Origin: a virus
Taxonomy: Duplodnaviria; Caudoviricetes
Reading direction: 5' to 3' (one strand)
DNA: 64,000 bases
Virus record (IMG/VR): IMGVR_UViG_3300032225_000686
Below are positions 609-41,928 of this stretch, in pieces (position 1 is the first letter of the stretch; the number at the start of each line of letters is the position of its first letter). Under the pieces are notes generated by a model that searched no databases, was not told the origin of the DNA, and saw nothing but the letters and a program-made list of their open reading frames with translations. The translations under genes were made by a program, and so were the position numbers.

Positions 609-3600
609 GTGGCTATTACCTTCATCGAACTGATTAGAGGTACAGGGTGATTTGCATTGGTTTTATCGCCGTACATTACCACCTTGATTGCAAAGGTAGA
701 GAATCGTTGATCTTCCGTTAGAGTCAAGGTATATCTTATGTCCTGATACTCGCCCTCTGCCGTATTCCTTTCTGTCGAAGCAGTCATCTTCTGATAGCCT
801 CTGTTTGAGAAAGTTGTATTCGAATCGGTCTCGTCGGGAAGTGTTTTGGCGAAGACCTCGACTCCCGTGGTTGGTGGATTTGAAATCTTGAGATAAACAT
901 CCAACTGTATTGCGGGATTCTCTAGGTTAATCTTCTTGGTGATATACCTAGATGCCGAACGGACAGAAGAAGATACCCCTCTGTTGTTTGGGCTTTGCTC
1001 ACCGTTTGAGTCGGTTGTGCCTACCTTGTTATTGTTTACCTGATCTTCAACTAGCACGATGCATGAACGATCCAAGTCAACCACGGGGGAGACATAATCG
1101 TTAGTGCTTGACATATTGAATCGGAGAGTTGTGAAGTTGGCTGTTGGGTTTACCGAATCAGCCTTTGCTCTCTTGAGATTCTTTCCAACGACTATATCGG
1201 TATCGGTTCCCAAAATTCCCTGACCGTATTCCTGAACTGTTATTGATGTTCCGGGAGGGGTTATGGTTGGGACTTCAACTCTGACAATACTTGGGTTTAC
1301 GCTTGCACCGTAGTAACTTGTTGGCACATTCTTGGTCTGAATGATTGATGCAGTATTACGATCAAACTTACAGAAGTTCACTACAAACTTCAGGTCTTCT
1401 CGGGGTTCCTTCAGTAGCGTGTTCTGTGACTGTGCTGTGAATAAAGAGCGTACATATGGCTGCTTTGTTACAGATAGAACAGGATCAGATTCGCTTTCCT
1501 GATATTGAGTTTGATTTAGTATTGCTGAGTGTAGAGAGAACTTGTCGCTTGTAGTTCTCAAACTGAAGCAGTATTCGACTCCCGGATTCAAGTAAATCGG
1601 AGAGCCAAATCCAAACCTAGTTGAAGACGATGCGTCATCGCTTACCGAAATTCCACTTGAGAACACCGTCGAAACTCCTGTTGGAAGAGTCTTGGATGGG
1701 TGTGGGAATCCGTTTAGCATGTTCTTTAGTTCTAGAGTGACGGGTACATTTGCCGAATCCTTGCTCTTGAACCACAAATCTACGCTGCTGACGAACACAC
1801 CATATGGGTAGATTACAGGATCAACAAAGAAGGATTGTGATAGTGGCTCAACGATGCCTCTAGAGGCTGCGGTTGTGCTTGTTTCCTTGGCAAAGATGTC
1901 GTTCACTATCGTACTTGAACTTGGAGAAGCCCTCTTGATAATTGGCTTTCGGGTGCTTACGGTTTCTGTTTCCTTGATACCGTAACTACCCTCAATCGGG
2001 AATATCTTCTCTGCTACTGTAGTTGTAGTTGTGATATCATTTGTGTTACTGTCACAGAAACGAATCAGTCTTGCTCCGGTCTTGAGGTTGCCCGTTTGAT
2101 TCAAGTAGATTGCATATCCAGAAGAACCTGCGGTAGTTCCACCAAACGATCCCTTGCTATCAGTCATCACATAACCCGTAGTCCCTGTGTCTGTTGAAGC
2201 AGTCAACGATTGGGTAGTAGTTACTATTGTTGCGGGAGTAGTTGAGTCATCAATGAATGCGTACAACTTGGTGTTTGGCTTTAGACCATCTCCACGAACC
2301 AAGACCTCAATGTTTCTTGCATAGAATTCAACATCGCTATTAGTCTTCTCTGATGACTTGTTCATTACGATTGACTCGGGTGAGGCATTTCTATCTAAGA
2401 TGCTATTCTTGAAGGCATTCATGTTTGCTGATACAGACATGTCTTCAATAGTCTTGTTGAAGATTTGATTATTGGTTTCGTCAAAGTTACTCTTGCCGAA
2501 CCACATCGTTTCCCAATCGTTCCATTGAGTACCGAATCCTGTACCCTCGCCCGCGCCCGTGCCTCCCTCCGCGCCCGCGCCCCCGCGCACGGAGAATGCC
2601 CAGTTGTCCTTTTCGCCTCTCGGGTTGACTCTGACAGAGGGTCTCTGTGTATCGGCAAACCAAAAATCCGAATCGGGGTTTGTGAATAGAGTACCTGTGT
2701 AGTTGATGATGCCGAATGGGTTCAACTGTCTTGAGGTTGACGCTTGAATCTGCACGACTCCGGCAACTCCAGTGTAGCCCATCGTGAACAAGCGATTGCC
2801 TGTTATTGACAAGGGTATAGATGCTGGGCTATAGTTATACTGTGATGGAGTTGCATTTGAATCCAACGAGAGTCTGTAAACCTTCGTCTTGAATGCGGGA
2901 CGGAGCAATGAACCTTCGGGGTCTACTGCTGCGTTGTACATAGTGTCCTTCACATCTCCAACATTGTGACCACGGAAGGTATCGACCAAGATACCCTTCT
3001 TCGGTACTTCAACGCCATCTGTATCAACGATAGCGGTATTCTTGGCTTCTTGTTCTAGAAGACTCATTGTGGTGTAGTACTCCACGGAGTCGATTCTTCT
3101 TTCCAAGTTACCAATATCCTGCATCGTGTAACGCTTGTTCTTGATTGCACGAATGGATACATCATCCTTGCTGTATGCATACGGCGGCAAGGATAGGGTG
3201 TATAGAGTCATGGCATTTGGCTGATCGGGAGGTACTGCGCCCTCCAAAGATGGGAGACCCGATACTAACTTGAATGTCTTGTCTCTTGTGAGTACCAACT
3301 TATCTGTTCTTGGGAGATACCTATCAACAGATACCAATCCTGTAGAAGTAGAAACCGGATAGCAGAATGGACTAAATGTTCCATCTGTCTGTCTGTCGGG
3401 CCTAAAATCAAACAAATCCGATAGACGATAGGTGTTTCCTGTGTCTGGACTTGTGTATACTGGGATGTCTCCAAAAGCAACTCCCGAATACGAATCTACG
3501 GTGAATGGTCCTGCTGCTCCAGTTGCCCCCGTTCTATCAAATCTTCGCACAGTTACGCTAAGTGTTCCTGTTAATCCTGCCGTAGAACCCGAACTAAATC

Positions 3601-5689
3601 CGGGAGCGAACACAAGTCGTGACCAATCATAGTAATTGTCTCGGTTACCTGTATCGAGCACGAAATAGGAGTTGAATGACTGACCACTTGCTCCCGTAAT
3701 TGCACTAATTTCAAAGACATCAATCTTCTTGTTCAGTAGACGATACTCTGCTCCGTTAGTTGCACCCGTTGGTCCTACATCAGTTAGTGTAGACCCTGTT
3801 ATAGAAAGTGTTTCTTGAACTACGGTCTTTCCTCTTCGGACATAAGATCCGCTGTTGTATAGAAGTCTTGCCTCGCCAATAACTGTTCCTGTTGCTCCGT
3901 TAGGACCATTGGTTACCATAAGAGTATTTGCCGCTGCACCTGTAGTTGCACTAGCAGATACCGAATCGCCGTTTTCATTGATTACGATGAAGGTGTTATC
4001 GGGGGCATTCACCAATGTGCCATAGTCAAACTTTGCCAAGTTTACATCAGTACCCAAGCCAATATTATTTGTTGAGATTGATGCTGAACCTGTTGCAGAG
4101 AAACTTACCTTCTTTGCAAATCTTACCTTATAGTCCACTTCCGTTACGGTCTTTATTCCGTTTCCTGCGGATAGCGGGAAGAGGAGCGTGTTTGTGAAGT
4201 CTTGAAGTTCTGCTCCACCAGTTGGGCTGTAGAAATCCACCAACTGCTGACCTGTTCCCGTCTTACCCGCAACAAACAAACTCTTTACATCCGAGAACTT
4301 GGAACCCGAACTCAAAGATACATCAAATAGGTCTACTCGCCAGTTCTTATCACCATAGCCACCAACATACTGAATTCCTCTAACCTTTGCTGTTCCCACT
4401 TGAGCAAATGCCGATGCTCCCGTCATTCCTCTGCTAGAAGACAGGTATGCTGTTGGCATGGTTGCCAAATCAAAACCAATAAATCCATTAGTAGGGAAAG
4501 CATTTCCTGTTAGGCTAGACAGAACATAAGGACCAACCACAGATTGGATGTTTGCATCTTCTATGTTCTTGGTTGTTCTTGTCTTGGGTAGATCAAGACG
4601 GGTGTTGCCTATGGTCTCAAATTCGTATCCAAAGACATATGCTTTGCCGGGGCTTACAACGAGCGAGAATGTTGCTCCAGTTGAACCATAAACGCTGTCT
4701 GTTACGGTGATTTGGAATGGCTCAACAGTATAGTTGCCAGACTCATCATATGTTCTTCTTGCTAGCGTGTCTCCAAGCACCGAGTAGTCGGGGTACTGTT
4801 CTCTCTTGATGACATTACCGTTTACAATACGAATGAATTCTATGAAGTTCTCACGGGAGAAGTTGTCAGTTGTGACCGTACTCAAATCTTCTGTGGCTGA
4901 GTAACCGTACTGTGTAAGTGGTAGGTCAATCTTGAAGCGATCTGCTCCGGGTGCTGCATAGTTGTAGAATCCGTATGAAGGATCTCTTAATGTAGTATCA
5001 TCGCTATCGGTGATGATTTGCTTATCTACAGAGAAGCCCACTCTTGTAGTTGGAGTTTGGAATAGTCTTACTTTAGAGCCAGTCGCGCCCGTGAGGGTGT
5101 GCGCGGCTATCGTTTGCTTATCGTTAGAAACAAAGAAGCCTTCTATGAATCTGATTCCGGGTGCTACCGAAACCAACAAAGCATCACCTATAGCCTGACC
5201 TGTTATTGATCCTGCTGTGATTCCTCCAATAGTGAATGAAAATGATGCTGAATTGGTTGCAGTTCCACCTATAGTATTTCCACTAGCAAAAGCAGTACCG
5301 CCTGATGTGTATTCGAAAAATACAACAGGGCGGGTATCAGATGTGCTGTTTGCTAGTGCTGTTTCTGCGTGTAGAATTCTACCACCAGAATAGGACGAAG
5401 AAATCTCTCCACCAATTAGGTCTGTGATATCCTGTGTTCCCGTAAGCCCACTAACTCTAGCAAACTTGACTCTATTCTCTACAACCTCACCGCCGTAAAC
5501 CAAAGACCCTTCGTTGAAGATGTTCTTACCAAACTTCTCAATCTGATTTTGAAGTATGGTCTGTAGTTGCGTAAGTTCTCGGGCTTGAACCGCATAGCCG
5601 GGGCGGAACAGCATACGCAAGAACTTCTTGTCCTCGCTGTAATCGTCGTAGTAAGGGTCTACATTGAAGAGTAATGGGTCGTAGGACAT
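605..5689 (-). CDS. Large virion structural protein, DUF4815/VrlC-like
   Basis: 1694 aa; N-terminus FNVDPYYDDY..LFRPGYAVQARELTQLQTILQNQIEKFG and internal LARRTYDESGNY and LERRIDSVEYYTTMSLLEQ motifs; lies downstream of gp8. Confidence 0.85.
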   Translation of the reverse strand: MSYDPLLFNVDPYYDDYSEDKKFLRMLFRPGYAVQARELTQLQTILQNQIEKFGKNIFNEGSLVYGGEVVENRVKFARVSGLTGTQDITDLIGGEISSSYSGGRILHAETALANSTSDTRPVVFFEYTSGGTAFASGNTIGGTATNSASFSFTIGGITAGSITGQAIGDALLVSVAPGIRFIEGFFVSNDKQTIAAHTLTGATGSKVRLFQTPTTRVGFSVDKQIITDSDDTTLRDPSYGFYNYAAPGADRFKIDLPLTQYGYSATEDLSTVTTDNFSRENFIEFIRIVNGNVIKREQYPDYSVLGDTLARRTYDESGNYTVEPFQITVTDSVYGSTGATFSLVVSPGKAYVFGYEFETIGNTRLDLPKTRTTKNIEDANIQSVVGPYVLSSLTGNAFPTNGFIGFDLATMPTAYLSSSRGMTGASAFAQVGTAKVRGIQYVGGYGDKNWRVDLFDVSLSSGSKFSDVKSLFVAGKTGTGQQLVDFYSPTGGAELQDFTNTLLFPLSAGNGIKTVTEVDYKVRFAKKVSFSATGSASISTNNIGLGTDVNLAKFDYGTLVNAPDNTFIVINENGDSVSASATTGAAANTLMVTNGPNGATGTVIGEARLLYNSGSYVRRGKTVVQETLSITGSTLTDVGPTGATNGAEYRLLNKKIDVFEISAITGASGQSFNSYFVLDTGNRDNYYDWSRLVFAPGFSSGSTAGLTGTLSVTVRRFDRTGATGAAGPFTVDSYSGVAFGDIPVYTSPDTGNTYRLSDLFDFRPDRQTDGTFSPFCYPVSTSTGLVSVDRYLPRTDKLVLTRDKTFKLVSGLPSLEGAVPPDQPNAMTLYTLSLPPYAYSKDDVSIRAIKNKRYTMQDIGNLERRIDSVEYYTTMSLLEQEAKNTAIVDTDGVEVPKKGILVDTFRGHNVGDVKDTMYNAAVDPEGSLLRPAFKTKVYRLSLDSNATPSQYNYSPASIPLSITGNRLFTMGYTGVAGVVQIQASTSRQLNPFGIINYTGTLFTNPDSDFWFADTQRPSVRVNPRGEKDNWAFSVRGGAGAEGGTGAGEGTGFGTQWNDWETMWFGKSNFDETNNQIFNKTIEDMSVSANMNAFKNSILDRNASPESIVMNKSSEKTNSDVEFYARNIEVLVRGDGLKPNTKLYAFIDDSTTPATIVTTTQSLTASTDTGTTGYVMTDSKGSFGGTTAGSSGYAIYLNQTGNLKTGARLIRFCDSNTNDITTTTTVAEKIFPIEGSYGIKETETVSTRKPIIKRASPSSSTIVNDIFAKETSTTAASRGIVEPLSQSFFVDPVIYPYGVFVSSVDLWFKSKDSANVPVTLELKNMLNGFPHPSKTLPTGVSTVFSSGISVSDDASSSTRFGFGSPIYLNPGVEYCFSLRTTSDKFSLHSAILNQTQYQESESDPVLSVTKQPYVRSLFTAQSQNTLLKEPREDLKFVVNFCKFDRNTASIIQTKNVPTSYYGASVNPSIVRVEVPTITPPGTSITVQEYGQGILGTDTDIVVGKNLKRAKADSVNPTANFTTLRFNMSSTNDYVSPVVDLDRSCIVLVEDQVNNNKVGTTDSNGEQSPNNRGVSSSVRSASRYITKKINLENPAIQLDVYLKISNPPTTGVEVFAKTLPDETDSNTTFSNRGYQKMTASTERNTAEGEYQDIRYTLTLTEDQRFSTFAIKVVMYGDKTNANHPVPLISSMKVIAT
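2544..2592. repeat. GC-rich CGCGCCCGY motif island
   Basis: CCCTCGCCCGCGCCCGTGCC...CGCGCCCGCGCCCCCGCGCACGG. Confidence 0.7.
5084..5105. repeat. GC-rich CGCGCCCGY motif island
   Basis: CGCGCCCGTGAGGGTGTGCGCG. Confidence 0.7.
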
Positions 5690-5698
5690 TCGTTTACC

Positions 5699-8248: not shown

Positions 8249-8261
8249 ATACTCTATCTAT

Positions 8262-11200
8262 TCAAGATGTTTTGTTGTAGTTAAAATCCATGACTTTGGT
8301 GGCTTCTGGAACGACAGCATTTGCCGAGTTACGGAACACCAACTTTAGTCTCATGAAGTGCCTTTTGCTGTGGTAGTCCTGTCCTCTGAATCTGAAGATT
8401 GGACCATTAGAATCAAAGTAGTTTGCTGTAAACATTTCCCCCGTGCTGTCGGGGTTTTCGAAATTGGGAAACGGAGAATTTATTGAAATTAGGGCAGATG
8501 TGGGGGAGAATGGGCCAGCATTCGCCAACATGTATTCCTTTTCGGGTCCGCTAGAATCTGAAGGCTTTACTGCATATAGTTCTGCCCATAAAGAGCGGAT
8601 ACCGTAGTAGCCGAGATAAACAAGAGTAGAAACCCCTTCTTGGGGAGTCCCCGTAATACCCCTGACTGCCTCAAGATTTAGTATTAGGTTCTTCCCGCCC
8701 GTAACTAAATTGGCAGGCTCTCTGTAATCGTAGTTGTTGGCAGCGGGGGCAGTAAGTCCATTCATTTTTTCCGCGTATACCTGTGGGAACGGAGGAGCCT
8801 TTACCTGATCGTTGGTGCAATTGAATTCCTTACCTACGGGCATACTGAAGAAGGCTCTAGCCGTGATCTTTCTAAAATCGGAATAGGCGATGTTATACCC
8901 AAGCAACTCACCGTTGGTTGTGGATTCGATACCCTGAACAACGGGGATATAATCCCAAGGAGCATCATAGAAATTTTCAGATGCTCCTGTGTAATCCCTA
9001 AACCCCAATAAAAGAAGAGCAAGATCTCCGTTATCAACTACTCCACTTCCGTCTGCATCTCCCAAAACAAATCCCGCAAATGTGGATGGAACTTCAGGGG
9101 AATTATTGAATTGAGGATACGCCGAATAAGTATCAAGATTGCCACTTGTTGGACTTGCGAATGCCCACTCTCTTGCAATAAAACTATTGAAGGTGCAGTA
9201 GAGTGGCATGACAATTTGGTTAGCCAAGTTGTATCGTATGGTTTCAAAGGAAGTCATATCTCCCGTATGCCCAACTATCTTCTTGTCTCCCAAGGGGAAC
9301 CAATACGAAGGGCATAGTGCAGTTGGTCCCGTAGCAGAGTAGAATTCTGCATTTTCTCCTGTTGCTCCTGTGTATCCCAAAACATAGTGCAAATACGGGG
9401 TCATTGCTCTTCGAAGTATTATTTGATAGTTATCGCCGTTAGTCGATCTGTCTTGATTGAAGATATTTGGAGATTTGCTGTATGGGGCAAATACCGCATC
9501 TTGACCTGTTGAACCCATCAAAGCATCAAGCAAAAATGATGGGTTCAGATCATTATAGAACCCATCTATCAAACGGCATCCATAATCAGAATCGTTGAGT
9601 ATATCTTCCCACACAGAGTAAAACACCGATGCTTTGATTGCTGAGTATTCGGGAAGATACTTTCTTGTATCAGATAAGGATGAGATGAAGAAGTTTGGTG
9701 TGTCCTTTCCATTTGTCTTATAAAGACGGCTGGATACCATTATCACAAACTTTCTCTCTATCCCTTCCCCAACAAATGTCTCATTTAGGTATTTGCTAGC
9801 ATCCAACAACCTCTTGAATTTAGTGATGCTCTTTTCGATTGATGGTGATCTAAAGTGGCAATCTAAATACATTACATCTTGTTCATGTATAAGTGCCTTG
9901 ACATTTTCTGCTGCCTCTATGACTAGAGCCTTTTGATTTTCGTTGGGTAGATTTTCTATTGATCGGTATAGGTCTTCGACTACATTTACAAAGTTTGGGA
10001 TTCGTGGCCAACCGTTATACCCAAATCTACACAGAGGATACTTCAGTTTAATCAACTTCAACACAACTACCATGTCAGATAGTATCTGATTCTTGTCTTC
10101 TATTTCTTGTTGGCCCGTAAACGATCCCGCGTATGTTGGCTGTATTTTTGACGGAAAGAAGATAGTGTTCAAATCAATCATCACATATTCTTGAGATTGG
10201 CTATTCAGTCCGTTTGATTGCAGCCAAGAATCCAAAGAATCTACTATTTGCTGTAGTGTTGGTGCTGTAGAAGCAGACAAAATCTCATCCGTAAATCGGT
10301 AACATAGTTTTCCGCCTATGAGTTTTGGTCCATAAAGTGGGCTTGTTTCTGATAAGAATGTTGAGAAGTCAACTGTGGTTGATGGTTGTGTGTTTCTAAA
10401 CTCAACAGTAAATGGGTCATACAGGAATGTTGGATTGCTCTCCGATCCTGTAGTCTCCTGCCTATACGCGGTAAGGCTTTGACTAGTACCCGCAGAAATG
10501 GCCGAAGATATTGGTCCGTAGAAAGGAACTAATGGATTGTAAGACAGCATCACATAACGCTCTCCTGATGTAAACCCTGTAGCCCATTCTTCTCGGTTTG
10601 CCGTTACTGATTCTGTCCATTCTCTCCAATATACGGTATGCCCACACGCGCCCGTGGGTGTGGGATAACCAAACACCGATGCTGCACCATGATCTGTTAG
10701 GAACTCATCCTTTAAATCATATGGTATTCTTGCAACAACAGGCTCGCTCATTCTTCTGTTTGGGTGTTGGTAAACAATCCAAAAAGGATCAGCATTTGCT
10801 TGTCCCGATAATCCCAATGGGGGATTGAATAAATCAGGTTCTTGATAAGAGACACCAGATGCAAATGGGTTACCTATAACAAAGAAGAAATCATTTAGTG
10901 AAGCGTCTGGGTGACTTTGTAAATACTGGGCATAGTCCTCTAAATCAACTTTGCCATTCGGCACTCCTCCCAAATCATATTGTATTGGTGGAGTATGCCT
11001 TGATCTATTATATCCGGATGGTTCTGATATCACCTCACCATCAACAACACTAACTTTTCTAAACCACTTGTTTAGATCGTCGTGTGTCAAGAAGGTATAT
11101 GGAAGATAGTGTCCTATTATAGGAACATCATATTCAATCAATGAGGTTGCTTGATTTAGATCGGTATAAGCACATCTCTTAAGAAGCACTTTGCCGTAGA

Positions 11201-16547: not shown

Positions 16548-18388
16548 GCAAACTCCCCACCGTCAACCTGATCTACTGCGTCGGACGGGAAGTTAGTCTC
16601 GTATGCAACGATTGGAACGGCGGGGATTGCTGGTGAACTGCCTACTGATGGGTCATTTAGTTGCGTAGCAGCCTTGCCGGGGTATCCTGTGATAAGAGTA
16701 GCCTTTCCGCCCTGAACAGCATACAAACTCGTTGTGGGCAATCCGGGTGCGGCTGTGGGGGCTAGGTTTACGCTTGTGACGGGTTGATTCTGTCCTGCTA
16801 TACCTGCTGCTACAGGAGGTAGAGCCGTCTGTGTCTGCGTTCCTGCCGCTGCTGAATTTGTGGCAAACATGGCTCCAAGATCGGTTCCTTGATTTGCTAC
16901 TCCCGCAATACCGCCCGCCTGCATATTTCCACCGATTCCTCCAACAGCAGAACCAACAGGAGCCGCTGCACCACCTCCACCAAGTATTGCTCCACCAACA
17001 CCCAATAGACTTCCAAGATTTAGTGGACCTGCACCCTGACCAATTGATCCTAATCCGGTTCCTTCTGCTGCACCACCTACCGCTTGACCAATACCTCCGA
17101 CAATTCCACCAACAGCAGATTGAATTCCTGATATGACTGAGCCTATTCCAGATACAACAGAGTTTAATCCTGTATCTGCTTGCCCCGCTACTGATTGTAA
17201 TGGATTTGCTGATGCTTGAGCCTGCTGTGCTGCTGCCTGAACACTATCAAGTTGAGTTGCTTGTGATGCTGCTATTCCGCCTCCTGCAATCGAACTTGTT
17301 GTGGTTGTTACGCTGCTTACCGTGGTTACATTACCGCCTGCCGCTGCTACAGACAAAGCACTCGCGCTCGCGGGTGCGCCCGCGCCCGTGGGCATGAGAC
17401 CAGTAATAATTGCTCCCGGGTCTAGACCTTCGGGATTGAAATCTATGCGTGGGGCAACAAACAACATGTTTCCGCTACTTGCGACCGTATAGGTTCCTCC
17501 AACCTTGTGGACGAAATCCTTCTTGGTCTCCATGATGATGTTGCCGTTAACTAAAATCTTGGCATCGCCTGCTATCTCCACCAGCAAGTCTTTGCCCACC
17601 TTTTGCTTGCTAGTGCCATTAATGATAAGATCGCAGTTGCCTTTGATTAAAACCCGATTGTTTCCTGCAACGATCTCATAGTTATCGGACTTTATCTTCT
17701 CTACCTTCTTGCCGTCAGGATGTATTTCAGACCATGTGCCTGCTCGGTGGTAGATGCCAATACGCTCTGCTCCTGTGGTATCATCTATCTCAACTATATG
17801 CCCCGACTCACTTTCGATCACATGGTTTTGTGGATACTGTGCTGCGTATGGAGTCTGTGGCTCATCCCAACTTCCAATTAGGGCTGTGCTTACACCCTTC
17901 TCTACTCCATCCTTTTTAGTCTTGACGATTGTCTTGTCGATGCTTTCGTTACGGGCTAGCCTGTTTGTATCAGGTTCGCCTGCATAATCCTCGCTAGGAT
18001 ATTTGCCACTAGGATCATTGAATCCATCCTCGGGTGTTGACATCTTTCCTGTAAGATTGTCGGGTTGGGGAAAAGCCGCAAATGTTCCTAGTATTATTGG
18101 ATCTTGGCAATTGATGCCGTCGCGGAAGAAGCCAACCACCCACGCGCCCGCGAGCACGCCCGTGGGCGAGCGACCCTTACCGCTTACTGCTGAACTTGTA
18201 ATTGGTTGAAGTGGAGTTGCCCAAGGAAGGTCTTCTGTCGGAAGCAGAACCTTATCGCCTGTGTGAAAACCAAAGCATCTGACTCTTACACGACCCATCA
18301 TCAGAGGATCATCAATATCCTCCACGACTCCGTGAAACCAAACGAAGCCGTTCTTGCCTATTTGATCGTGTATAATTGACGCATCCAT
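16544..18388 (-). CDS. gp5: Baseplate hub/central spike gp5 (no lysozyme domain, long C-terminal extension)
   Basis: OB-fold FVWFHGVVEDIDDPLMMGRVRVRCFGFH, YPQNHVIESESGHIVEIDDT, beta-helix ending APRIDFN. Confidence 0.92.
   Translation of the reverse strand: MDASIIHDQIGKNGFVWFHGVVEDIDDPLMMGRVRVRCFGFHTGDKVLLPTEDLPWATPLQPITSSAVSGKGRSPTGVLAGAWVVGFFRDGINCQDPIILGTFAAFPQPDNLTGKMSTPEDGFNDPSGKYPSEDYAGEPDTNRLARNESIDKTIVKTKKDGVEKGVSTALIGSWDEPQTPYAAQYPQNHVIESESGHIVEIDDTTGAERIGIYHRAGTWSEIHPDGKKVEKIKSDNYEIVAGNNRVLIKGNCDLIINGTSKQKVGKDLLVEIAGDAKILVNGNIIMETKKDFVHKVGGTYTVASSGNMLFVAPRIDFNPEGLDPGAIITGLMPTGAGAPASASALSVAAAGGNVTTVSSVTTTTSSIAGGGIAASQATQLDSVQAAAQQAQASANPLQSVAGQADTGLNSVVSGIGSVISGIQSAVGGIVGGIGQAVGGAAEGTGLGSIGQGAGPLNLGSLLGVGGAILGGGGAAAPVGSAVGGIGGNMQAGGIAGVANQGTDLGAMFATNSAAAGTQTQTALPPVAAGIAGQNQPVTSVNLAPTAAPGLPTTSLYAVQGGKATLITGYPGKAATQLNDPSVGSSPAIPAVPIVAYETNFPSDAVDQVDGGEFA
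17359..17398. repeat. GC-rich CGCGCCCGY motif island (double)
   Basis: CACTCGCGCTCGCGGGTGCGCCCGCGCCCGTGGGCATGAG. Confidence 0.75.
18137..18172. repeat. GC-rich CGCGCCCGY motif island (double)
   Basis: CACCCACGCGCCCGCGAGCACGCCCGTGGGCGAGCG. Confidence 0.75.
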
Positions 18389-21891: not shown

Positions 21892-22353
21892 ATCGGAACC
21901 TTCAAAACATATAAAGGGTTCTACCGCCCACAGAACCCCCAAAAGTATAAAGGCGATCCCACCAAATGTGTGTATCGTTCGTTGTGGGAACGCCGCTTTA
22001 TGCAATACTGTGACCTAACCGAATCAATCCTAAAGTGGTCTTCGGAAGAAATCATCGTCCCATACCGCTCGCCCGTGGACGGGAAGGTACACAGATACTT
22101 CGTTGACTTTTGGATCAAAGCCAAGAACTCCCAAGGTATAGAGGAGTCTATGCTCATAGAGATCAAGCCAAAGAAAATGACTGTTCAGCCAATCACAGAG
22201 GGTAAGAAGATGACCCGAAACAAACTAAACGAGATCAGGGATTGGATGGTCAACAGCAGTAAATGGGAAGCCGCTAGAGCATTCTGTGCTGACAGGGGAT
22301 GGAAGTTCAAAATCCTAACGGAAGAAGAGATATTCGGTAAGGCTACCGCATGA
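21892..22353 (+). CDS. gp4: Head completion nuclease gp4 (probable ATC start)
   Basis: YKGFYRPQNPQKYKGDPTKCVYRSLWERRFM..WSSEEIIVPY..HRYFVDF..IEIKP. The conserved N-terminus extends upstream of the track's GTG at 21970. Confidence 0.9.
   Translation: MGTFKTYKGFYRPQNPQKYKGDPTKCVYRSLWERRFMQYCDLTESILKWSSEEIIVPYRSPVDGKVHRYFVDFWIKAKNSQGIEESMLIEIKPKKMTVQPITEGKKMTRNKLNEIRDWMVNSSKWEAARAFCADRGWKFKILTEEEIFGKATA
22066..22083. repeat. GC-rich motif copy
   Basis: CGCTCGCCCGTGGACGGG. Confidence 0.55.
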
Positions 22354-24915: not shown

Positions 24916-27900
24916 ATGGCCGAAGAATTCGGGGATTTTGGAACACCACCACCGCCGGGAGGACCACCTTCAGGCAGTCCGCTGCCATCTGATGCTGAAG
25001 CCGCAAAGAAAGCGGCAGAGAGCATGAAAGACCTTACCGAAAAGGTAAAGGACTTGAAAACCAAAACAGAGATTGCCGTTGAGAGAATCGTGGATCTCTC
25101 AAAGGAAGGGTTTCGTCTGAATGAAAGTCTTCGTAAGAACTACGAGGATATGAAGAAGTTAGAAGAGAAGCGAAAACTTGGACTCAAACTCACAGACGAT
25201 GAAATCAAGAGAGAAAAAGAACTCGCTGCACTTCAAAACAAAGAGAAAGAAGAACTGAAGAAAGTAGGAGAAGCCCTAGTTAAACTTCGTGATTCTTTGG
25301 AGTCAACCGAAGAGGTTCAATATCATGCTAATGAGAGTTTGAAGAGTCTATCAGATGCCTTTGATGACTTTGCTGATGGTGTTCCTAGACAACTAACAGA
25401 ACTTGAAAAAGAACTCAAGCCGATAACAAAAAGTCTCAAGGCAGACGGCACAGCACTTAAAGAATTTGGTGATTCCATTAGAGGAATTGCCAATACATTA
25501 CCGTCCTTCAAAGACTCGCTAAAAGCAGGGTTTGCTTTGGGTGTTGGAAAACTAATACCACTCATAGCAGATTCATTTGGCAAAGGAACTAAAACATCTC
25601 CATTAAATCTTGAGGGATTGTTCGGCAAGAAAGAACCAAAGAGGAACGAGGTAGTTCTATCCATAGAAGAACTAATCAAAGAGACTCAAAAGACAACAAG
25701 CGAAATTTGGATATTGGGGGATGTGTTCAAGACTAATTTAGGAGTCGTTGATACCACGATAAAGAGTGTGGGGGTTTCTATTCAGGAGTGGATAAATCTC
25801 CTTGCTGATACCATTTCTTCAACCCAAAAGGACATAAAGGCTGTTCTTGTATCAACCCGATCTTCCGGAGGTATGACCGCAGTAGTTGAGGGTGGTGGTG
25901 ATCTTGTAGCAGAATTCTTGAACATGCTGGTGGATGAAGTCAAAGAACTACACAAGATTGCAAATGTTGTAGTCACAAACACATCCGAAATGACCAAGGC
26001 ATTGGGGGAAATGAAGGATGCCTTGATTGATGCAGTAATTGCTCAACAAGAAAGTGCTCTTGAAATTAGCGAGAAAGAAAGAGCCTCGCCCGCAGGTGCG
26101 ACCGAGCCCGCAGGAGAACCATCAAAACCCGGCGAAAAGGCAGAGGCTAAACCACCAGAAAAAAGTGGGGTGATGGGCAATTTCTTGAATGCAGCAAAGC
26201 AGGGAGCACAAGCAATGCTCATGATTGCAGGTTCCTTGCTGGTTCTTGCGGTTGGCTTAAAGTTGATGAAAGAAATTGATCCCGGAACCTTGCTAAAAGC
26301 AGGCGTAGCAATGAGTGCTTTGGGCGGTGGATTATACTTGCTAGCAAAAATCCCAGCAGCAGATCTAAAGAAAGCAGCAGAGTCCATGCTATTAGTTGCT
26401 GCCTCTGTTAGTGTTTTGGCTATCGGAATGATGTTGATGAAAAATGTAGGGGCTGAAGGCTTTATCAAGACCGCAATAGGTCTTACTGCTATGGTTGGTG
26501 TTCTTCAGTTACTATCCAAAGTAGACTCCTCAAAACTTATGAAGTCTGCAATGTCTCTTGCTCTAGTTGGGGCATCGTTGATACCTCTCGCTGTAGGAAT
26601 GATGTTGATGACTAAAGTGAATGCGGGAGCGATGCTTAAGACAGGCGTTGCAATTCTTGGTCTCATGGGAGTCTTGTATGGTATAAGCAAAATCAACACC
26701 GCTTCTTTGATTAGGGGTGCTTTGGGAATCGCTATCCTTGGAGCATCATTATTACCATTATCGTTAGGTCTGTTGGCAATGAATTTCGTGAATTGGGAAT
26801 CTGTTGGGAAAATGGCTGCTTCTTTGGTTGGTCTTGCTATAGCGGCGGGAGTACTTGGATCAATGTCGGCATTGATTCTGCCGGGAGCCTTGGCTATTGC
26901 GGTATTGGGTGCTTCTCTCATTCCGTTGGCTCTTGCCTTAATGATGTTCAATGCCGTAGGTTGGGAATCTTTGGCTGTTGCGGGTGCAGCAATAGTTGGG
27001 TTTGCTCTTGTATTTGCAGGCATAGGGTTTATGTCTTTGTTCATAGCAGCAGGAGCCGCTGCTATGGCAGTATTGGGTGTAGGATTGATGTCGCTAGGTG
27101 CGGGTCTTTCAATAATCAATAGCGTGGGAATGGACAATATACCCACCTTGTCGGCAGGTATTATGGAGTTGGCTACGACTATGGCTATAGTTGGAGCGAT
27201 GTCTCCTCTACTAGTTCTTGCTTCTGCTGCTATGACAATTATGGCTGTCGCTCTTGTAGCACTTTCCTTCGGTCTAGCAATCGCAACACCCGGCATTCTT
27301 ATGTTCGCTGGTGCTATGGCTGTTGTTCAAGCATCAGGTACTATGGACATTCTATCTCAAATCGCAGATATCGGAATGAACGGAGTACAGGTAGCAGCAG
27401 GTCTTGTTGCTACTGCTGTGGGTATAGGTGCTGTTGGTGCTGCACTATTGGCATTTGGTGCTATGGGTGCGGCGGGACAAGTCACGGGTGCTATCGGTGA
27501 TGCCGTATCAGGAGTGCTTGGTTTCTTTACTGGTAAGAAGGCTCCATCACCAATAGAAATGCTTGGTATGTTCGTAGGTTTTGCAGAAATGGCTCCTAAG
27601 ATAAACGAAGGTGCTATGGCTATCAATGCTCTAGCAGACGCTCTTCAACGATTCTCAAACACCAAGTTCGGTGAAATGTTGGGCTTAGATAAGATCGGTT
27701 CTCTAGTAGATAAGATTGGTAGCACAGAGCCGGGAGTGTTTGACAAATTGAAGTCTATGGGTCAATCTTTAATGGCTTTTGCTACTGCACAGCCCCCACC
27801 ACTAACTGCACCAAAGGCAAGAGGCAGTACAGTAGAGTATGGAGGAGAAGAGTATCTACTTCCTGCCGCAAAGGAAGGAACTCCATTAGCAAGCAATCTA

Positions 27901-28221
27901 TCTTTCACAAATGGGGTGTTGACAACCAAAGGAGTTAGCACAGAAACTCTAATCGCTGAAGCAAATCTAGAAAAGCGAGACATGGAGAAATCTGAAGGTA
28001 TTGAAAGAGAATTGAGTGAAGATCTTCTCAGACAAATTCTAGGAGAATTGCGTTCAAGAGGAGAAATACAGCCTGTGGTGGTAAACAATACAAACTCTAC
28101 CCAAATGGCAGCACCCCCATCCGGTGGGGGTGGAGGTGCTACCATGATTCCGCTTTATTCAGGCAGTCACACCGATGCTACCAAGATGGCATATCAGGTG
28201 TCTTACCGTCCCGCAGGATAA
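24916..28221 (+). CDS. Tape measure protein
   Basis: 1101 aa; coiled-coil N-terminus, long Ala/Gly/Leu-rich hydrophobic helical repeats, C-terminal VVVNNTNS motif; follows gp26/gp51. Confidence 0.82.
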   Translation: MAEEFGDFGTPPPPGGPPSGSPLPSDAEAAKKAAESMKDLTEKVKDLKTKTEIAVERIVDLSKEGFRLNESLRKNYEDMKKLEEKRKLGLKLTDDEIKREKELAALQNKEKEELKKVGEALVKLRDSLESTEEVQYHANESLKSLSDAFDDFADGVPRQLTELEKELKPITKSLKADGTALKEFGDSIRGIANTLPSFKDSLKAGFALGVGKLIPLIADSFGKGTKTSPLNLEGLFGKKEPKRNEVVLSIEELIKETQKTTSEIWILGDVFKTNLGVVDTTIKSVGVSIQEWINLLADTISSTQKDIKAVLVSTRSSGGMTAVVEGGGDLVAEFLNMLVDEVKELHKIANVVVTNTSEMTKALGEMKDALIDAVIAQQESALEISEKERASPAGATEPAGEPSKPGEKAEAKPPEKSGVMGNFLNAAKQGAQAMLMIAGSLLVLAVGLKLMKEIDPGTLLKAGVAMSALGGGLYLLAKIPAADLKKAAESMLLVAASVSVLAIGMMLMKNVGAEGFIKTAIGLTAMVGVLQLLSKVDSSKLMKSAMSLALVGASLIPLAVGMMLMTKVNAGAMLKTGVAILGLMGVLYGISKINTASLIRGALGIAILGASLLPLSLGLLAMNFVNWESVGKMAASLVGLAIAAGVLGSMSALILPGALAIAVLGASLIPLALALMMFNAVGWESLAVAGAAIVGFALVFAGIGFMSLFIAAGAAAMAVLGVGLMSLGAGLSIINSVGMDNIPTLSAGIMELATTMAIVGAMSPLLVLASAAMTIMAVALVALSFGLAIATPGILMFAGAMAVVQASGTMDILSQIADIGMNGVQVAAGLVATAVGIGAVGAALLAFGAMGAAGQVTGAIGDAVSGVLGFFTGKKAPSPIEMLGMFVGFAEMAPKINEGAMAINALADALQRFSNTKFGEMLGLDKIGSLVDKIGSTEPGVFDKLKSMGQSLMAFATAQPPPLTAPKARGSTVEYGGEEYLLPAAKEGTPLASNLSFTNGVLTTKGVSTETLIAEANLEKRDMEKSEGIERELSEDLLRQILGELRSRGEIQPVVVNNTNSTQMAAPPSGGGGGATMIPLYSGSHTDATKMAYQVSYRPAG
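26085..26116. repeat. GC-rich motif island (double)
   Basis: CTCGCCCGCAGGTGCGACCGAGCCCGCAGGAG. Confidence 0.65.
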
Positions 28222-29136
28222 TCAATCCTCTTCAGCCAACTTGCGGAAGTAGTCGAGGGTATCCCCCTCGCCGTCTTCATCATCGTTGGTCGGAACGGGC
28301 TTCTTCGCAGCAGCGACCTTCGCCTCGTTCTTACGGAACTTCTCACTCAGAGACTCACGGATGGGTTCCTCGTCCTCAGCCTTCTTGGAGGGCTTTGCCT
28401 CCGTGTTGATGACGGTATCAAACCGTTCCTTCAACTCTTCATAAGCCTTGAACTTATCCTTGCCGACGAGTTCCGACAGCGGGTACTGCGACTTCCAAAC
28501 CTTCTCAAGGAGTTCATCCTTGCCGTCAAGAAGTGCAGACTGCGTATCAAATTCGCTCTTGTCATAGTTAGCGAAGCCACCAACGGTCTGAATCTTCATC
28601 TTGAAGTTACGACCGTTCCAGAAATCAAACGGGTTGGTTGGCTGCTCGCCGGGGAACTTCGGCTGCATACAATCGCTGATCTTATCAAAGATCTTCTTGC
28701 CGTAGCGGAACAGGAACACCTTACCCTCGTTCTCGCGGTTAGCGGGATCGCTGATAACCATGATGTTGCTGATATACGACAACTTACGCTTACGGGCGCG
28801 GGCGATTTCCTTATCGGACTCAATGCCGCTGTTCCACAGTTCGTTGTTTGCCTCGCACACGGGGCACTTCAGACCAAGAGTGGTTGGGCAGTTCTCAATG
28901 TACCAACCACCCTTACCTTGGAAGCCGTGATTGAACAGGCGAACCCAAGGAACATCCTCGCCCTCACACGAAGGCAGGAAGCGAACGATAGCAAACCCAT
29001 TGCCATCCTTCCCACGCTCGGTAGTCCAAAAGCGGTCATCCTTGTAGGACTTGCTTTCGGAGGTCTTCTCAAGTTCCTTCTGTAGATTACCCACAGAGTT
29101 CTTGCTCATCTTCTTCATATCTGCGAATCCGGCCAT
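28222..29136 (-). CDS. gp32: Single-stranded DNA-binding protein gp32
   Basis: DDRFW..GNGFAIVRFLP, HGFQGKGGWYIENCPTT..CPVCE, KRKLSYISNI, FDFWNG.NFKMKI, acidic tail LDYFRKLAEED. Confidence 0.97.
   Translation of the reverse strand: MAGFADMKKMSKNSVGNLQKELEKTSESKSYKDDRFWTTERGKDGNGFAIVRFLPSCEGEDVPWVRLFNHGFQGKGGWYIENCPTTLGLKCPVCEANNELWNSGIESDKEIARARKRKLSYISNIMVISDPANRENEGKVFLFRYGKKIFDKISDCMQPKFPGEQPTNPFDFWNGRNFKMKIQTVGGFANYDKSEFDTQSALLDGKDELLEKVWKSQYPLSELVGKDKFKAYEELKERFDTVINTEAKPSKKAEDEEPIRESLSEKFRKNEAKVAAAKKPVPTNDDEDGEGDTLDYFRKLAEED
28785..28805. repeat. GC-rich motif copy, reverse orientation
   Basis: Minus strand reads TCGCCCGCGCCCGTAAGCGTA. Confidence 0.5.
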
Positions 29137-32424: not shown

Positions 32425-32428
32425 GGGC

Positions 32429-32456: not shown

Positions 32457-32463
32457 AGAACGC

Positions 32464-33597
32464 ATGGCTAACAAAATTGAACAGCAGTATTGGGGAAGCG
32501 AGCCTCCTTGGGATCACCTTCCCCGAGACCCGAAAGACCCCAAGATCGCCACGCAGTATTGCAGGGCGGTTCAATGGTATCACAATATGTCGGATACCGA
32601 TGACCATAAGAAGTGGGTCATAGAGTGGATGTCCGATAACAAGTACAAGGCTGATGCCCTAGCCGCTGTAAAGAAGTTGGCTGATGTAAGTCTTTATCCG
32701 GGAGACAATCCTGATCTGCCCGTAGGCATCATTACAGGTCCAATAGCACGAATGCTGACCTTGGGTGCTCCTCTTATGCCTCAACAGGTAGATTCCTTCC
32801 GTAAGGCTATCCTGACCCTTATAGAGAAGGGTAAGAAGCAGAAGGACGCGCCCGCAGGCGCGCCCGCGCCCGCCCGTGCGAGCGTGAGAGACTATGTTAA
32901 AGATCAGGTCCGAGAACTGATTGAAGAGATTGAGTTGGTCTACGATTCCATCCTGCTAGGCAAACCCGTCAAGTGGGAATGCTCCGACTTCATCAAGTCT
33001 CGTCAAGTCAAGCCCATGCAAGCCCACATGATTGCGGATTGGTTTGACCATTCTCTGCAAGACATCAAGGCAGTAATCGGTGGCTCTGCGGACGATCAAT
33101 TAAAGGAAGGCTACTCTGTTTATACCAAGTCTCAACTGAAGAAGTGTATGGCTTGGCTTACACATGTAGTGGATACTTGCCGAGAGATGAAGCGACCGAC
33201 TCCTATCCGTAGGGTTCGTCGCAGAAAGTCTCCGATTGATCGCGTGAAGAGTATGAAGTGGAAGAAGTCCGATACTGATCTTGGTGTGGAGTCTATTCAC
33301 CCTAGCCGTATGATTGGTGCATCCAAGGTTGTTCTGTTCAACACTAAGACCCGAGTAGTAACCCTACTAGAGGCAGAGAATGCTGATGGTCTTGATGTGA
33401 AGGGAACATCTGTGGTATCCTTTGACTCCAAGGGCTGTAAGTGCAAAAAGGTACGAAAGCCCAAGGAATTCATCAAGGCAATCAAGGATGGCGGTATTCG
33501 TGCATTCAAGAATGCCTTTGACGCACTAAAAACCGATGAAAAGATCGGCAAGGGCAGAACTAACGAAGACACCATTATTCTTACAGTCTACAAGTGA
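32464..33597 (+). CDS. Hypothetical early protein of a type seen in T4-like phages
   Basis: 377 aa; QLKEGYS, SIHPSRMIGASKVVLFNTKTR, GLDVKGTS, GRTNEDTIIL. Confidence 0.8.
   Translation: MANKIEQQYWGSEPPWDHLPRDPKDPKIATQYCRAVQWYHNMSDTDDHKKWVIEWMSDNKYKADALAAVKKLADVSLYPGDNPDLPVGIITGPIARMLTLGAPLMPQQVDSFRKAILTLIEKGKKQKDAPAGAPAPARASVRDYVKDQVRELIEEIELVYDSILLGKPVKWECSDFIKSRQVKPMQAHMIADWFDHSLQDIKAVIGGSADDQLKEGYSVYTKSQLKKCMAWLTHVVDTCREMKRPTPIRRVRRRKSPIDRVKSMKWKKSDTDLGVESIHPSRMIGASKVVLFNTKTRVVTLLEAENADGLDVKGTSVVSFDSKGCKCKKVRKPKEFIKAIKDGGIRAFKNAFDALKTDEKIGKGRTNEDTIILTVYK
32847..32890. repeat. GC-rich CGCGCCCGY motif island (double)
   Basis: CGCGCCCGCAGGCGCGCCCGCGCCCGCCCGTGCGAGCGTGAGAG. Confidence 0.75.
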
Positions 33598-33602
33598 GAT
33601 CG

Positions 33603-33610
33603 TATAAATA
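33603..33610 (+). promoter_or_regulatory. Late promoter TATAAATA
   Basis: Exact consensus upstream of the 33638-35453 cluster that includes the glycosyltransferase. Confidence 0.8.
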
Positions 33611-33637
33611 GTCTCGTCATCATGAAGGAGCGAAACA

Positions 33638-34069: not shown

Positions 34070-34074
34070 ATCAC

Positions 34075-34242: not shown

Positions 34243-34289
34243 TCCATCACATACATATAAAGAATCCTTTCTCATAATGGAGATATACA

Positions 34290-35453: not shown

Positions 35454-35474
35454 TCTTCGCAGGCTCTAGGTGCT

Positions 35475-35482
35475 ACTAAATA
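35475..35482 (+). promoter_or_regulatory. Late promoter ACTAAATA
   Basis: Upstream of the tail fibre gene. Confidence 0.7.
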
Positions 35483-35511
35483 GTCCCTAGAGATAGCGAG
35501 GGTATACCAAC

Positions 35512-38946: not shown

Positions 38947-38963
38947 ATTTAGGATTATAAACC

Positions 38964-40263: not shown

Positions 40264-40267
40264 CCCC

Positions 40268-41155
40268 GTGGCACTCAACCCATATTTCAATAAGTTCAAG
40301 AATCTACCTGAACAGAATCTAATTGAAGACCTCACTATTGAGGCTATCAAGATTCACGGTATGGAAATGTTTTACTTGCCGAGGGAAATGATTCGCAAGG
40401 ATGACTTCTTTGGCGAAGCACCTTACTCAAGATTCTCAACCTTCAAGATGATTGAAATGTATATGGATACAACTACAGCATTTGAAGGTGGTGATATGTT
40501 CACCAAGTTTGGCTTCGAAATTAGGGACAGCGTGAAATTTACTGTTTCTAGAAAACGATTCAAGAGAGAGACTGGCATGGATAGACCGATGGAAGGAGAC
40601 TTGCTATTCCTGCCTCTGAACAACGGTTTGTTTGAAATCAAGTTCGTAGAACATGAGAATCCTTTCTACCAACTAGGAAAGAGACTAACTTTCCAATTAA
40701 CATGTGAACTGTTCCAATACAGCGAGGAAAAGATGGAAACCGGTATTCCCGAGATAGATGTTGTGGAAGAGGAAGCCGCGTACAGTATCAACCTCACTAT
40801 AGGAGCAACAAATGGAACAGGCACTTTTGGAAAGGGCGATCTCGTATACCAATTCGCAAATGGCTCCCCAACGGGATCTATGGGAGAAGCGAATGCAACA
40901 GCAACCATTCTATCCTATGACACGGCAAGCCCGAACATTCTTGTACTTACTGATATCGTTGGTAGTTGGAGCATCACGGGTGGCACAGGTCAGACACTAT
41001 ATGTGACCAAGAGTGACAATACTTTATATGCGACAGTTTCCGGTATTGGCGATAAGTTTGGAGTCCTTATTGATGAAAACAACAAGGGCATTCAAGACGA
41101 AGCAAATACCTTCCTTGACTTTACTGAAAGCCATCCGTTTGGAGACCCAACCTAA
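40268..41155 (+). CDS. gp14: Neck protein gp14
   Basis: EQNLIEDLTIEAIKIHG, KFGFEIRD, RPMEGDL, FEIKFVEHENPFYQLGK, LDFTESHPFG. Confidence 0.95.
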   Translation: MALNPYFNKFKNLPEQNLIEDLTIEAIKIHGMEMFYLPREMIRKDDFFGEAPYSRFSTFKMIEMYMDTTTAFEGGDMFTKFGFEIRDSVKFTVSRKRFKRETGMDRPMEGDLLFLPLNNGLFEIKFVEHENPFYQLGKRLTFQLTCELFQYSEEKMETGIPEIDVVEEEAAYSINLTIGATNGTGTFGKGDLVYQFANGSPTGSMGEANATATILSYDTASPNILVLTDIVGSWSITGGTGQTLYVTKSDNTLYATVSGIGDKFGVLIDENNKGIQDEANTFLDFTESHPFGDPT

Positions 41156-41928
41156 TGTTGGAACACTTCTACCATCAAACTATCCGTAAAGTTGTTGTAG
41201 CGTTTGGATCACTTTTCAACAACATCTACATCTCTCGTTTAGATGATGCGGGAGATGAGGTAGAGCGTATTAAGGTTCCTATCTCTTATGGGCCGCAGCA
41301 GAAGTTCATACGCAGGCTCGCCCGCATAGGAACAGACTTTGATGCCGCTAAAGTCAAGATTGAGAACTATATTCCTCGTCTATCGTTTGAGATTCAGTCA
41401 CTAACATATGACCCGAATCGTAAACTCAACACAATGAACAGGACTCTCCTGTACAAAGATGCGAGCACACTAAAAACTCGTTATGAGCGTGTGCCATATA
41501 ACTTAGACTTGTCTTTGGGAATAATGACAAAGAACACCGAAGATGCTCTGCAAATTGTAGAGCAGATACTTCCTTACTTCCAACCAGAATACACAATCAC
41601 GATCAAAATGAATGACATGGACCCGAAGGTAAACATACCTATCGTGTTCAAAGCATGTACTATCGGTGAAGGAGATGATGGTTCGTATGGCAACTACGAT
41701 CTACGCAAGTTGACCTATATGACCCTCTCCTTCACCGCACGGGTTTACTTGTATGGACCAATCCGCGAGCAGGGAGTCATCTTGGACACTCAAGTTGGTC
41801 TCCGAGATTCCCTCAAGGGCGGTCTTACTGCTGCAACTATAAATGTATATCCAAACACAGGAATTACAGCAGGTTCATATGTTCCCGCAGGACCGACAGC
41901 ACAGACACAAATAATAGAAAAGGCTTGA
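41155..41928 (+). CDS. gp15: Tail sheath stabiliser gp15
   Basis: FYHQTIRKVVVAFGSLFNNI, KVPISYGPQQKF, PRLSFE, QIVEQILPYFQP. Confidence 0.95.
   Translation: MLEHFYHQTIRKVVVAFGSLFNNIYISRLDDAGDEVERIKVPISYGPQQKFIRRLARIGTDFDAAKVKIENYIPRLSFEIQSLTYDPNRKLNTMNRTLLYKDASTLKTRYERVPYNLDLSLGIMTKNTEDALQIVEQILPYFQPEYTITIKMNDMDPKVNIPIVFKACTIGEGDDGSYGNYDLRKLTYMTLSFTARVYLYGPIREQGVILDTQVGLRDSLKGGLTAATINVYPNTGITAGSYVPAGPTAQTQIIEKA
41307..41330. repeat. GC-rich motif copy
   Basis: CATACGCAGGCTCGCCCGCATAGG. Confidence 0.5.

Follow-up and report, generated by a model that had tools for sequence, protein, structure and literature searches.

The window analysed here, the whole 64-kb stretch of DNA from IMG/VR virus record IMGVR_UViG_3300032225_000686, has a GC content of 44.6% and is part of the genome of an uncultured, probably freshwater T4-like myovirus. 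Its genes carry ten short GC-rich islands, in which the hexamer CGCCCG and an imperfect 16-bp palindrome, CNCGCCCGYRGGYGNG, recur, and the origin of these islands is the subject of this analysis. The window encodes baseplate proteins (gp8-, gp7-, gp6- and gp25-like) and the gp5 OB-fold hub together with a DUF4815 virion protein, gp53, tail-tube-like, gp2-like and tape-measure-like proteins, gp32, gp59, a PD-(D/E)XK nuclease, a DenV-like glycosylase, UvsY and UvsW, as well as terminase, portal and gp23. The portal protein is only ~53% identical to the portals of cyanophages and Methylophilales phages. Across 11,785 nt the window is identical to a 176,208-bp ENA scaffold (ERZ28594166, scaffold_4), which is therefore taken as the window's own genome; with the next 19.7 kb (L049/L050, positions 64001-83700) the distribution of the islands was read up to 83.7 of 176 kb. 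The start of the window lies 68 nt past the end of this scaffold (window 1-68 against L048), an offset consistent with a circularly permuted or wrapped assembly. Positions 1-160 hold a 54-nt tandem repeat with copies beginning at 1, 55 and 109; it sits in an open-ended - strand open reading frame (ORF) whose product is a repeated Pro/Gly/Thr-rich fibre-like segment.

Related contigs, which presumably come from lake metagenomes to judge by their sample names, were used for comparison. These are G001 (55 kb, 90.5% identity to the window), L045 and L046 (97.4%, with an L046 overlap of 104 nt), L047 (76%), L004 (78%) and G002 (145 kb, 78%, in the same orientation as the window and with indel errors). 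A metagenome scan yielded no further close relatives. In G002 (L024-L031) there are many single-base indels inside coding regions, ORF coverage is just 78%, and guaC is in three pieces; this suggests an error-prone assembly, so that its gene calls and its AGCT and ACGT counts are to be read with caution.

A first-pass annotation, made from the letters of the window alone, had listed ten GC islands, and all ten were found where it placed them, with 65-90% GC over 22-49 bp (Table 1).

Table 1. GC-rich islands of the window, with the strand that carries the CGCCCG half
Island	Coordinates	Strand	Host gene (coordinates, strand)	DNA features	Encoded peptide
1	2544..2592	+	DUF4815 virion protein (605-5689, -)	90% GC; three CGCCCG including a tandem dimer; four GCGC	Gly/Ala-rich segment RGGAGAEGGTGAGEG
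2	5084..5106	+	same DUF4815 gene as island 1	CGCGCCCGTGAGGGTGTGCGCGG	AAHTLTGA
3	10641..10664	+	baseplate wedge, gp7-like (8262-12305, -)	perfect 16-mer CGCGCCCGTGGGTGTG at 10647	PTPTGACG
4	17359..17398	+	gp5 (16544-18388, -)	two 16-mer copies (17363, 17381; one mismatch each) and tandem CGCCCGCGCCCG	linker PTGAGAPASASA
5	18137..18176	+	gp5	perfect 16-mer CACGCCCGTGGGCGAG at 18155; two CGCCCG copies	conserved OB-fold peptide GRSPTGVLAGAWV, recoded by 12 successive G/C-ending codons, ten of them four-fold
6	22066..22087	+	TnsA-like endonuclease (21970-22353, +)	CGCTCGCCCGTGGACGGGAAGG, 16-mer with one mismatch	RSPVDGK
7	26085..26115	+	tape-measure-like (24916-28221, +)	perfect 16-mer CTCGCCCGCAGGTGCG	Ala/Pro linker SPAGATEPAGEP
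8	28785..28810	-	gp32 (28222-29136, -)	only reversed island; tandem CGCCCGCGCCCGT on the - strand	EIARARKRK
9	32847..32886	+	function not assigned (32464-33597, +)	90% GC; perfect 16-mer CGCGCCCGCAGGCGCG; four CGCCCG	DAPAGAPAPARASV
10	41307..41330	+	ORF (41155-41928, +)	weak; 67% GC; one CGCCCG	RRLARIG

The hexamer CGCCCG occurs 22 times on the + strand of the window (15 loci) and four times on the - strand, where it reads as CGGGCG (3 loci). In a codon shuffle that keeps amino acids and codon usage, 5.75 ± 2.45 copies are expected on the + strand, and 0 of 500 shuffles reach 22, in agreement with the proposed excess over codon-preserving shuffles; the reverse word is not enriched (4 against 4.7 expected). 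An unbiased ranking of k-mers against the same shuffle places CGCCCG second among the 6-mers, and the top 7-mers are CGCGCCC (10 against 0.8 expected), CGCCCGC and GCGCCCG. The 16-bp pattern put forward in the first-pass annotation is likewise present, with four perfect and three one-mismatch loci, 7/7 on the + strand; when up to three mismatches are allowed, there are 45 matches against 7.2 expected.

The enrichment is reflected in the choice of codons, which had been described as otherwise rare. Of the Thr-Gly-Ala sites, 4 of 16 in - strand genes and 0 of 7 in + strand genes are written ACG GGC GCG, against an expectation of ~0.35%; in - strand genes, CCC ACG GGC likewise serves for 3 of 11 Pro-Thr-Gly sites and GGC GCG GGC for 3 of 6 Gly-Ala-Gly sites (from codon usage, 0.4-0.8% would be expected for each of the three triplets). 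A pure amino-acid or codon-usage artefact is ruled out by the codon shuffle and by this triplet excess. The islands are runs of G/C-ending four-fold codons. Runs of length at least five number 7 against 1.7-2.3 expected, and those of at least seven number 2 against 0.1; short runs are depleted at lengths two (305 against 341), three (28 against 54) and four (3 against 9.7). Eight of the ten runs of at least four such codons fall in the islands. General clustering of G/C-ending codons was also considered, and it is absent once two-fold codons are counted.

The suggestion that the islands dictate low-complexity peptides holds for part of them. Four to five islands encode linkers (GAGAEGGTGAGEG, PTGAGAPASASA, SPAGATEPAGEP, APAGAPAPARA, ARARKRK), and the remaining islands lie in ordinary or conserved peptides. 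Rare G/C-ending codons are not typical of such linkers elsewhere in this genome. Tandem short units are combined with a low-complexity peptide in islands 1, 4, 7, 8 and 9, of which only island 7 varies in length among relatives, and islands 2, 3, 5, 6 and 10 have no microsatellite or linker character. Tandem dimers of the hexamer are present in four islands.

It is the DNA that repeats. The 12-mer CGCCCGCGCCCG occurs four times, encoding TGAG twice, APAP once and ARAR once (reversed), and the repetition therefore resides in the DNA and not in the protein. CGCGCCCGT occurs five times, and the same 9-14-mers recur across reading frames and orientations, encoding different peptides. On the other strand (GGC GCG)n becomes (GCG CCC)n or (GCC CGC)n, so that all tracts share CGCCCG/CGGGCG and its dimers; with this single 6-bp duplex, a Gly-Ala tract in a - strand gene and an Ala-Pro tract in a + strand gene produce the same word on the + strand. 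In G001, which also carries (CGTGGG)2, the 12-mer GGCGCACCCGCG (GAPA) is found in coding orientation in three genes on both strands. The DNA-level cause that had been claimed is supported by these recurring words, by conserved peptides that are recoded only in this lineage, and by an excess that survives every null applied. The islands are thus a real, statistically robust compositional feature with a cause at the level of DNA.

To what extent the word count follows from the positions of the G/C-ending codons can be read from the remaining nulls. With the avoided tetranucleotides (see below) fixed at their observed counts, the codon shuffle gives 7.7 copies on the + strand and 6.9 on the -. 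Holding the pattern of GC content at third codon positions (GC3) per position gives 10.5 and 5.7, and holding neighbouring bases, a codon-junction null that permits very few swaps, gives 13.6 and 6.7. The strictest null, in which GC3 positions are held together with tetranucleotide avoidance, gives 15.4 ± 2.3 and 6.0 ± 1.6. The + strand excess of CGCCCG persists under all five nulls. Since fixed GC-ending codon positions predict 15.4 against 6.0 and freed positions 7.7 against 6.9, it is mainly the positions of the runs that drive the word and its polarity: the count comes mainly from where the G/C-ending runs lie, and the polarity is largely predicted (2.6-to-1) once these positions are fixed. 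Neighbour-context bias at codon junctions fails to account for the window, with 22 copies against 13.6 expected; in G002 the same null leaves little or no excess (44 against 41.5 and 40 against 33.9 on the two strands).

The composition of this clade is otherwise marked by the avoidance of restriction sites. AGCT (241 expected) and ACGT (153 expected) are both at zero in the window, in the 19.7-kb extension and in nearly all relatives, the counts covering the window, L049/L050, G001, L045, L047, L004, L052, L009, L011 and L013; G002 retains 73 AGCT and 15 ACGT. RGCGCY is also at zero, 28 six-bp palindromes are missing (e.g. ATCGAT, CTGCAG, AAGCTT, GGTACC), and a 2- to 4-fold deficit is seen for TCGA, TTAA, GGCC, GCGC, CCAG/CTGG and GTAC. 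Both strands have an excess of CGGG (180 copies, 109 expected) and CCCG (186 copies, 127 expected). The Shine-Dalgarno-like AGGAGGA is found once inside window genes against 10.6 expected. Restriction-site avoidance as known from phages, which is extreme here, limits the usable GC-rich words and raises CGGG/CCCG. However, avoidance alone predicts no islands and 7.7 + and 6.9 - copies instead of 22 and 4, and the islands hold half of the leftover GCGC; it was rejected as a sufficient cause.

The CGCCCGY half faces the + strand in nine of the ten islands, as had been described. The binomial p value of 0.02 for this nine-to-one orientation rests on about ten independent islands. Along the genome, + and - copies of CGCCCG number 19 and 2 in 1-33.6 kb, 3 and 2 in 33.6-64 kb, and 2 and 0 in the next 19.7 kb. 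Except for the one weak site at 41.3 kb, all islands lie within 2.5-33 kb; apart from that site, 33.6-83.7 kb of the same genome has none, and word counts are at background. A signal placed every few kb, as envisaged in the first-pass annotation, is not what is seen; the islands are a local property. Island 10 itself, whose hexamer reads CGCTCG in G001, is indistinguishable from the ~six background copies due to chance. In the relative L052 (9474-9487, ~82 kb on the scale of the window) a perfect inverted pair, CGCCCG-TT-CGGGCG followed by TGGG, lies within a 225-aa gene adjoining a GC-rich MoxR/AAA_5 region.

Conservation at synonymous sites in close relatives had been set in advance as the evidence that a signal should leave. 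The islands are not better conserved than their flanks, third codon positions included. Identity of islands and 300-nt flanks is 88.3 and 90.6% in G001, 74.2 and 81.2% in G002 (p = 0.005), 93.6 and 95.1% in L045, 75.2 and 78.0% in L047, and 82.4 and 81.1% in L004, where the island is only marginally above; otherwise it is higher in the island only in the short L046 overlap. The fraction of intact hexamers matches the background (13/20 against 63% in G001, 6/21 against 27% in G002, 3/9 against 23% in L047). There is no purifying selection on the island sites, and even between genomes with 96-99% identity in the surrounding sequence the strongest island is not constant.

The fate of single islands differs. 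Island 1 is still GC-rich in G002, with 85% identity against 72% for the region. Island 2 has eight G/C-ending codons in succession, and its G002 ortholog uses A/T-ending codons. The core of island 3 is retained in G001, L045, L046 and L047; G002 writes the same PTPTG as ACT CCA ACA GGA. Island 4 has two internal substitutions in G001. The G/C-ending state of island 5 is found only in the window, L014, L045 and L046, with L004 and L047 intermediate; six AT-to-GC differences from L004 fall within 40 nt, and the gp5 peptide is written with A/T-ending codons in G002, G001 and nine more distant homologs. At island 7 a tandem repeat encodes an (APAGAP)n linker that varies among relatives: it reads APAGAPAPAGAP in G001, has two 18-nt PAGAPA units in L045 and shows in-frame deletions in L047. 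Island 8 is kept in G001 and G002, inside a highly conserved gene. Island 9 takes different forms in three genomes, G001 and L022 included, with 96-99% identity in the flanks; the changes are mostly CpG transitions. In G002 it is replaced by a linker of equal length (DSPVPATAGARASV) with CGGGCG in the opposite orientation. The islands are the derived state in this lineage. A mobile insertion or in-frame mini-element was rejected, as relatives have a stretch of equal length in their place.

G001 and G002 carry island 6 unchanged, and 5/5 relatives that cover it retain the intact 16-mer, with one or two flanking-base differences in each of L045, L047 and L004. Its host gene, which encodes a small TnsA-like (PF08722) endonuclease, has the baseplate block on one side and the gp2-like gene on the other, in a region that is unusually conserved (91% to G002 against 78% overall); no such call was made at that place in L047. 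The gene may be mobile or of homing type.

In G002, CGCCCG is present in 44 and 40 copies on the two strands, ~2-fold enriched on each, with no strand or coding-strand bias, and its frequency does not exceed that of other GC-only hexamers without the avoided tetramers. A single non-orthologous 16-mer is found in its 145 kb. CGCCCG is absent from the relatives with 38-40% GC.

One explanation of the enrichment is a lineage-specific recognition word with rapid turnover, in which CNCGCCC-GY-RGGYGNG or its CGCCCG core would be bound or cut by a putative dimeric phage protein or strand-specific enzyme. Its role would be local to the region of the baseplate, tail and replication genes, as a regulator, in the initiation of recombination or replication, or as a T5-like nick site (putatively at GGCGCGGG on the - strand), and selection would act on density and not on position. 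Such a word would account for the strand-specific CGCCCG at the top of the unbiased k-mer test, for the perfect and one-mismatch 16-mers all lying on the + strand, and for its being written synonymously into conserved peptides and into differing frames and peptides; it also contains GCGC, which the genome otherwise avoids. Its core at 10647 survives in L047 in spite of 76% overall identity, and CGCCCGTGGGT occurs three times at private sites in G002. On the other hand, conservation does not exceed background, no islands follow in the next 50 kb of this genome, polarity is absent from G002 and 16-mers nearly so, and most of the polarity follows from codon positions. No ParB-like protein or other candidate binder was identified among the annotated genes of the window (about a third of the genome). 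RGCGCRGG, the nick consensus of T5, is found five times against 2.9 expected, which is not significant, since 16 of 100 shuffles reach five. A recognition word thus appears unlikely. In a more specific form, synonymous AT-to-GC change would be actively introducing a 16-bp strand-specific pseudo-dyad into the genes for baseplate, tail and replication, in the service of a local DNA transaction, for example by a putative dimeric phage binder or T5-like nicking enzyme. This form, again with selection on density and not on position and against the avoidance of GC runs and GCGC, we regard as quite doubtful.

The islands could also be footprints of recombination, either conversion patches from GC-richer relatives or the result of GC-biased heteroduplex repair at mosaic junctions. 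The window diverges from G001 and from L045 in a strongly mosaic pattern, and in one or the other a mosaic boundary comes within 46-253 nt of islands 3, 4, 6, 7 and 10. The median distance to a boundary is 245 nt against 562 nt at random for G001 (p = 0.125), with p = 0.065 for L045, so the association is not significant, and variable islands themselves produce apparent boundaries. A 400-nt stretch of AT-to-GC clusters at 17.8-18.2 kb in the window lineage would fit such a process, as would the nearly identical ~28-nt stretch that island 9 shares with the tape-measure island of G001, the two genes being unrelated. However, AT-to-GC and GC-to-AT clusters are equally common genome-wide, the patch at island 5 is only ~30 nt with near-identical flanks, its 24-mer is found in IMG/VR only in the near-identical L014 contig with no other donor, and the GC-richer G002 does not have islands 2, 3 and 5. 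An origin as footprints of recombination appears unlikely on this evidence.

Strand-specific hairpins, formed by + strand ssDNA or RNA and selected as structural elements such as priming or pausing signals, were considered as well. Folds of the + strand are better than those of shuffled sequences at islands 4 (z = -4.5), 2 (-2.0) and 3 (-2.1), where G.T wobbles make them + specific, and island 4 forms the best + strand hairpin of all islands (-29.6 kcal/mol). At island 5 an 8-bp stem (18145-18152 with 18161-18168) gains from five of the six derived changes, among them one compensatory pair (18146 with 18167), but this reading is post hoc. Islands 1, 5, 7, 9 and 10 fold better on the - strand, islands 6 and 8 no better than shuffles, the pairing register differs between relatives, and no stem is followed by a T-run. 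With strand preference and significance so inconsistent among islands, a general hairpin element was rejected, and selected hairpins are very unlikely. No known RNA family in Rfam was matched in the window. Four G3 tracts are present in only one island with loops of up to 7 nt, or three with loops of up to 12, which led to the rejection of a G-quadruplex; island 1 is the sole canonical C-tract candidate (G4 on the - strand). Z-DNA was set aside because the core CGCCCG is not purine-pyrimidine alternating.

We tentatively favour, as the possibility closest to the observations, that the islands are a mutational or conversion by-product and not sites held for DNA binding, partition or packaging. 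From the non-conservation, the local distribution and the prediction by codon positions we infer a mutational origin. The islands consist of runs of 4-16 G/C-ending codons over Gly/Ala/Pro/Thr/Arg-rich peptide segments, about half of which are low-complexity repeat-prone linkers of (GA)n, (AP)n, (PT)n or APAGAP type. The 6-bp-periodic duplex shared by (GA)n, (AP)n and (AR)n yields the common CGCCCG/CGGGCG word, and the pseudo-palindrome emerges at the junction of a C-rich half (Ala/Pro/Arg codons or antisense Gly) with a G-rich one. In the proposed sequence of events, such tracts may originate by clustered AT-to-GC substitutions with local homogenisation or copying of 6-18-nt units, and would next decay by CpG transitions, with quick turnover.

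Several observations weigh against a by-product origin. The genome shuns adjacent G/C-ending four-fold codons (28 runs of three against 54) and GCGC (32 against 102), yet the islands hold 17 of the 32 GCGC, and a neutral process has to outpace this avoidance of GC-rich runs and GCGC. Islands 2, 3, 5 and 6 are neither repeats nor linkers and show no length change, and island 5 recodes a conserved functional peptide by at least six AT-to-GC changes, with none in the reverse direction. In a test of potential sites, the word could be placed at 201 positions on the + strand and is present at 22 of them, but on the - strand it could be placed at 223 and is present at only 4 (Fisher test: p = 7e-5 by sites and 0.003 by loci). 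This polarity, which again depends on about ten independent islands, also speaks for a recognition word. A residue remains under the strictest null as well: 0 of 57 samples reach the 22 copies of CGCCCG (15.4 expected), CGCGCCCGT is found 4 times against 1.0, CGCCCGCGCCC 4 times against 0.6, and the 10-mer 5 times against 1.5.

The sites are neither conserved nor spread genome-wide, and a genome-organising, partition or packaging signal, the function first suggested for the islands, is therefore unlikely; the absence of polarity in G002 agrees with this. A role of the islands as a conserved functional signal is not supported. If they are a by-product, they provide a cautionary case, in which a codon-shuffle z near 7 and a palindromic and polar appearance arise mostly from a few G/C-ending runs. 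If the residual signal is real, a T4-like phage would here be placing a DNA word of its own in conserved structural genes, of which examples are rare. In both cases the recoding of the conserved gp5 peptide by clustered AT-to-GC changes calls for explanation, because GC-rich words are otherwise purged from this clade; the recoding points to a so far unrecognised bias, mutational or by conversion, that acts locally in phage recombination.

We have compared the islands to known systems of dispersed DNA words. A parS-like site does not fit, as the dyad is imperfect with an asymmetric centre (CGTG/CGCA) and the sites are unconserved; on their sequence the islands would belong neither to the class of partition sites nor to that of G-quadruplex or Z-DNA tracts. 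The localised nick sites of T5, phiKMV-like phages and phage tf are likewise dispersed, confined to one strand and located inside genes. Read in antisense, tandem CGCCCGCGCCCG includes the consensus of the major T5 nicks, R/GCGCRGG (as cited in PMC3517423), and in phage tf all 14 consensus nick sites are on one strand across the whole genome (PMC3517423). In contrast, RGCGCRGG in the window is found four times on the - strand and once on the +.

The HIP1 element (GCGATCGC) of cyanobacteria is also a short GC-rich (pseudo)palindrome that is written via codon choice and over-represented against codon-aware nulls. HIP1 reaches 15- to 300-fold over-representation, has a periodic, genome-wide distribution, and is conserved inside ORFs as well as between them (PMC5861425). 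The phage word, in contrast, is enriched 1.4- to 4-fold over ~30 kb only, is unconserved and is not a true palindrome. Polar words of the uptake signal sequence (USS), DNA uptake sequence (DUS) and Chi types resemble it in entering genes by point substitution, in shaping local peptides and in that they can be strand-polar. Those words are genome-wide, number hundreds to thousands, are conserved and are tied to a known machine, whereas the phage has about ten local, unconserved copies with no polarity in the relative G002. With selected words of the HIP1 and USS/DUS types the islands thus share over-representation, and neither conservation nor, over the 83.7 kb read, a genome-wide distribution. 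As to coding microsatellites, islands 2, 3, 5 and 6 differ from them in lying within ordinary or conserved peptides of constant length, whereas four to five islands resemble such microsatellites and Ala/Pro, Pro/Thr and Gly/Ala linkers in their tandem 6- or 18-nt units and fast variation, one of them being variable in length.

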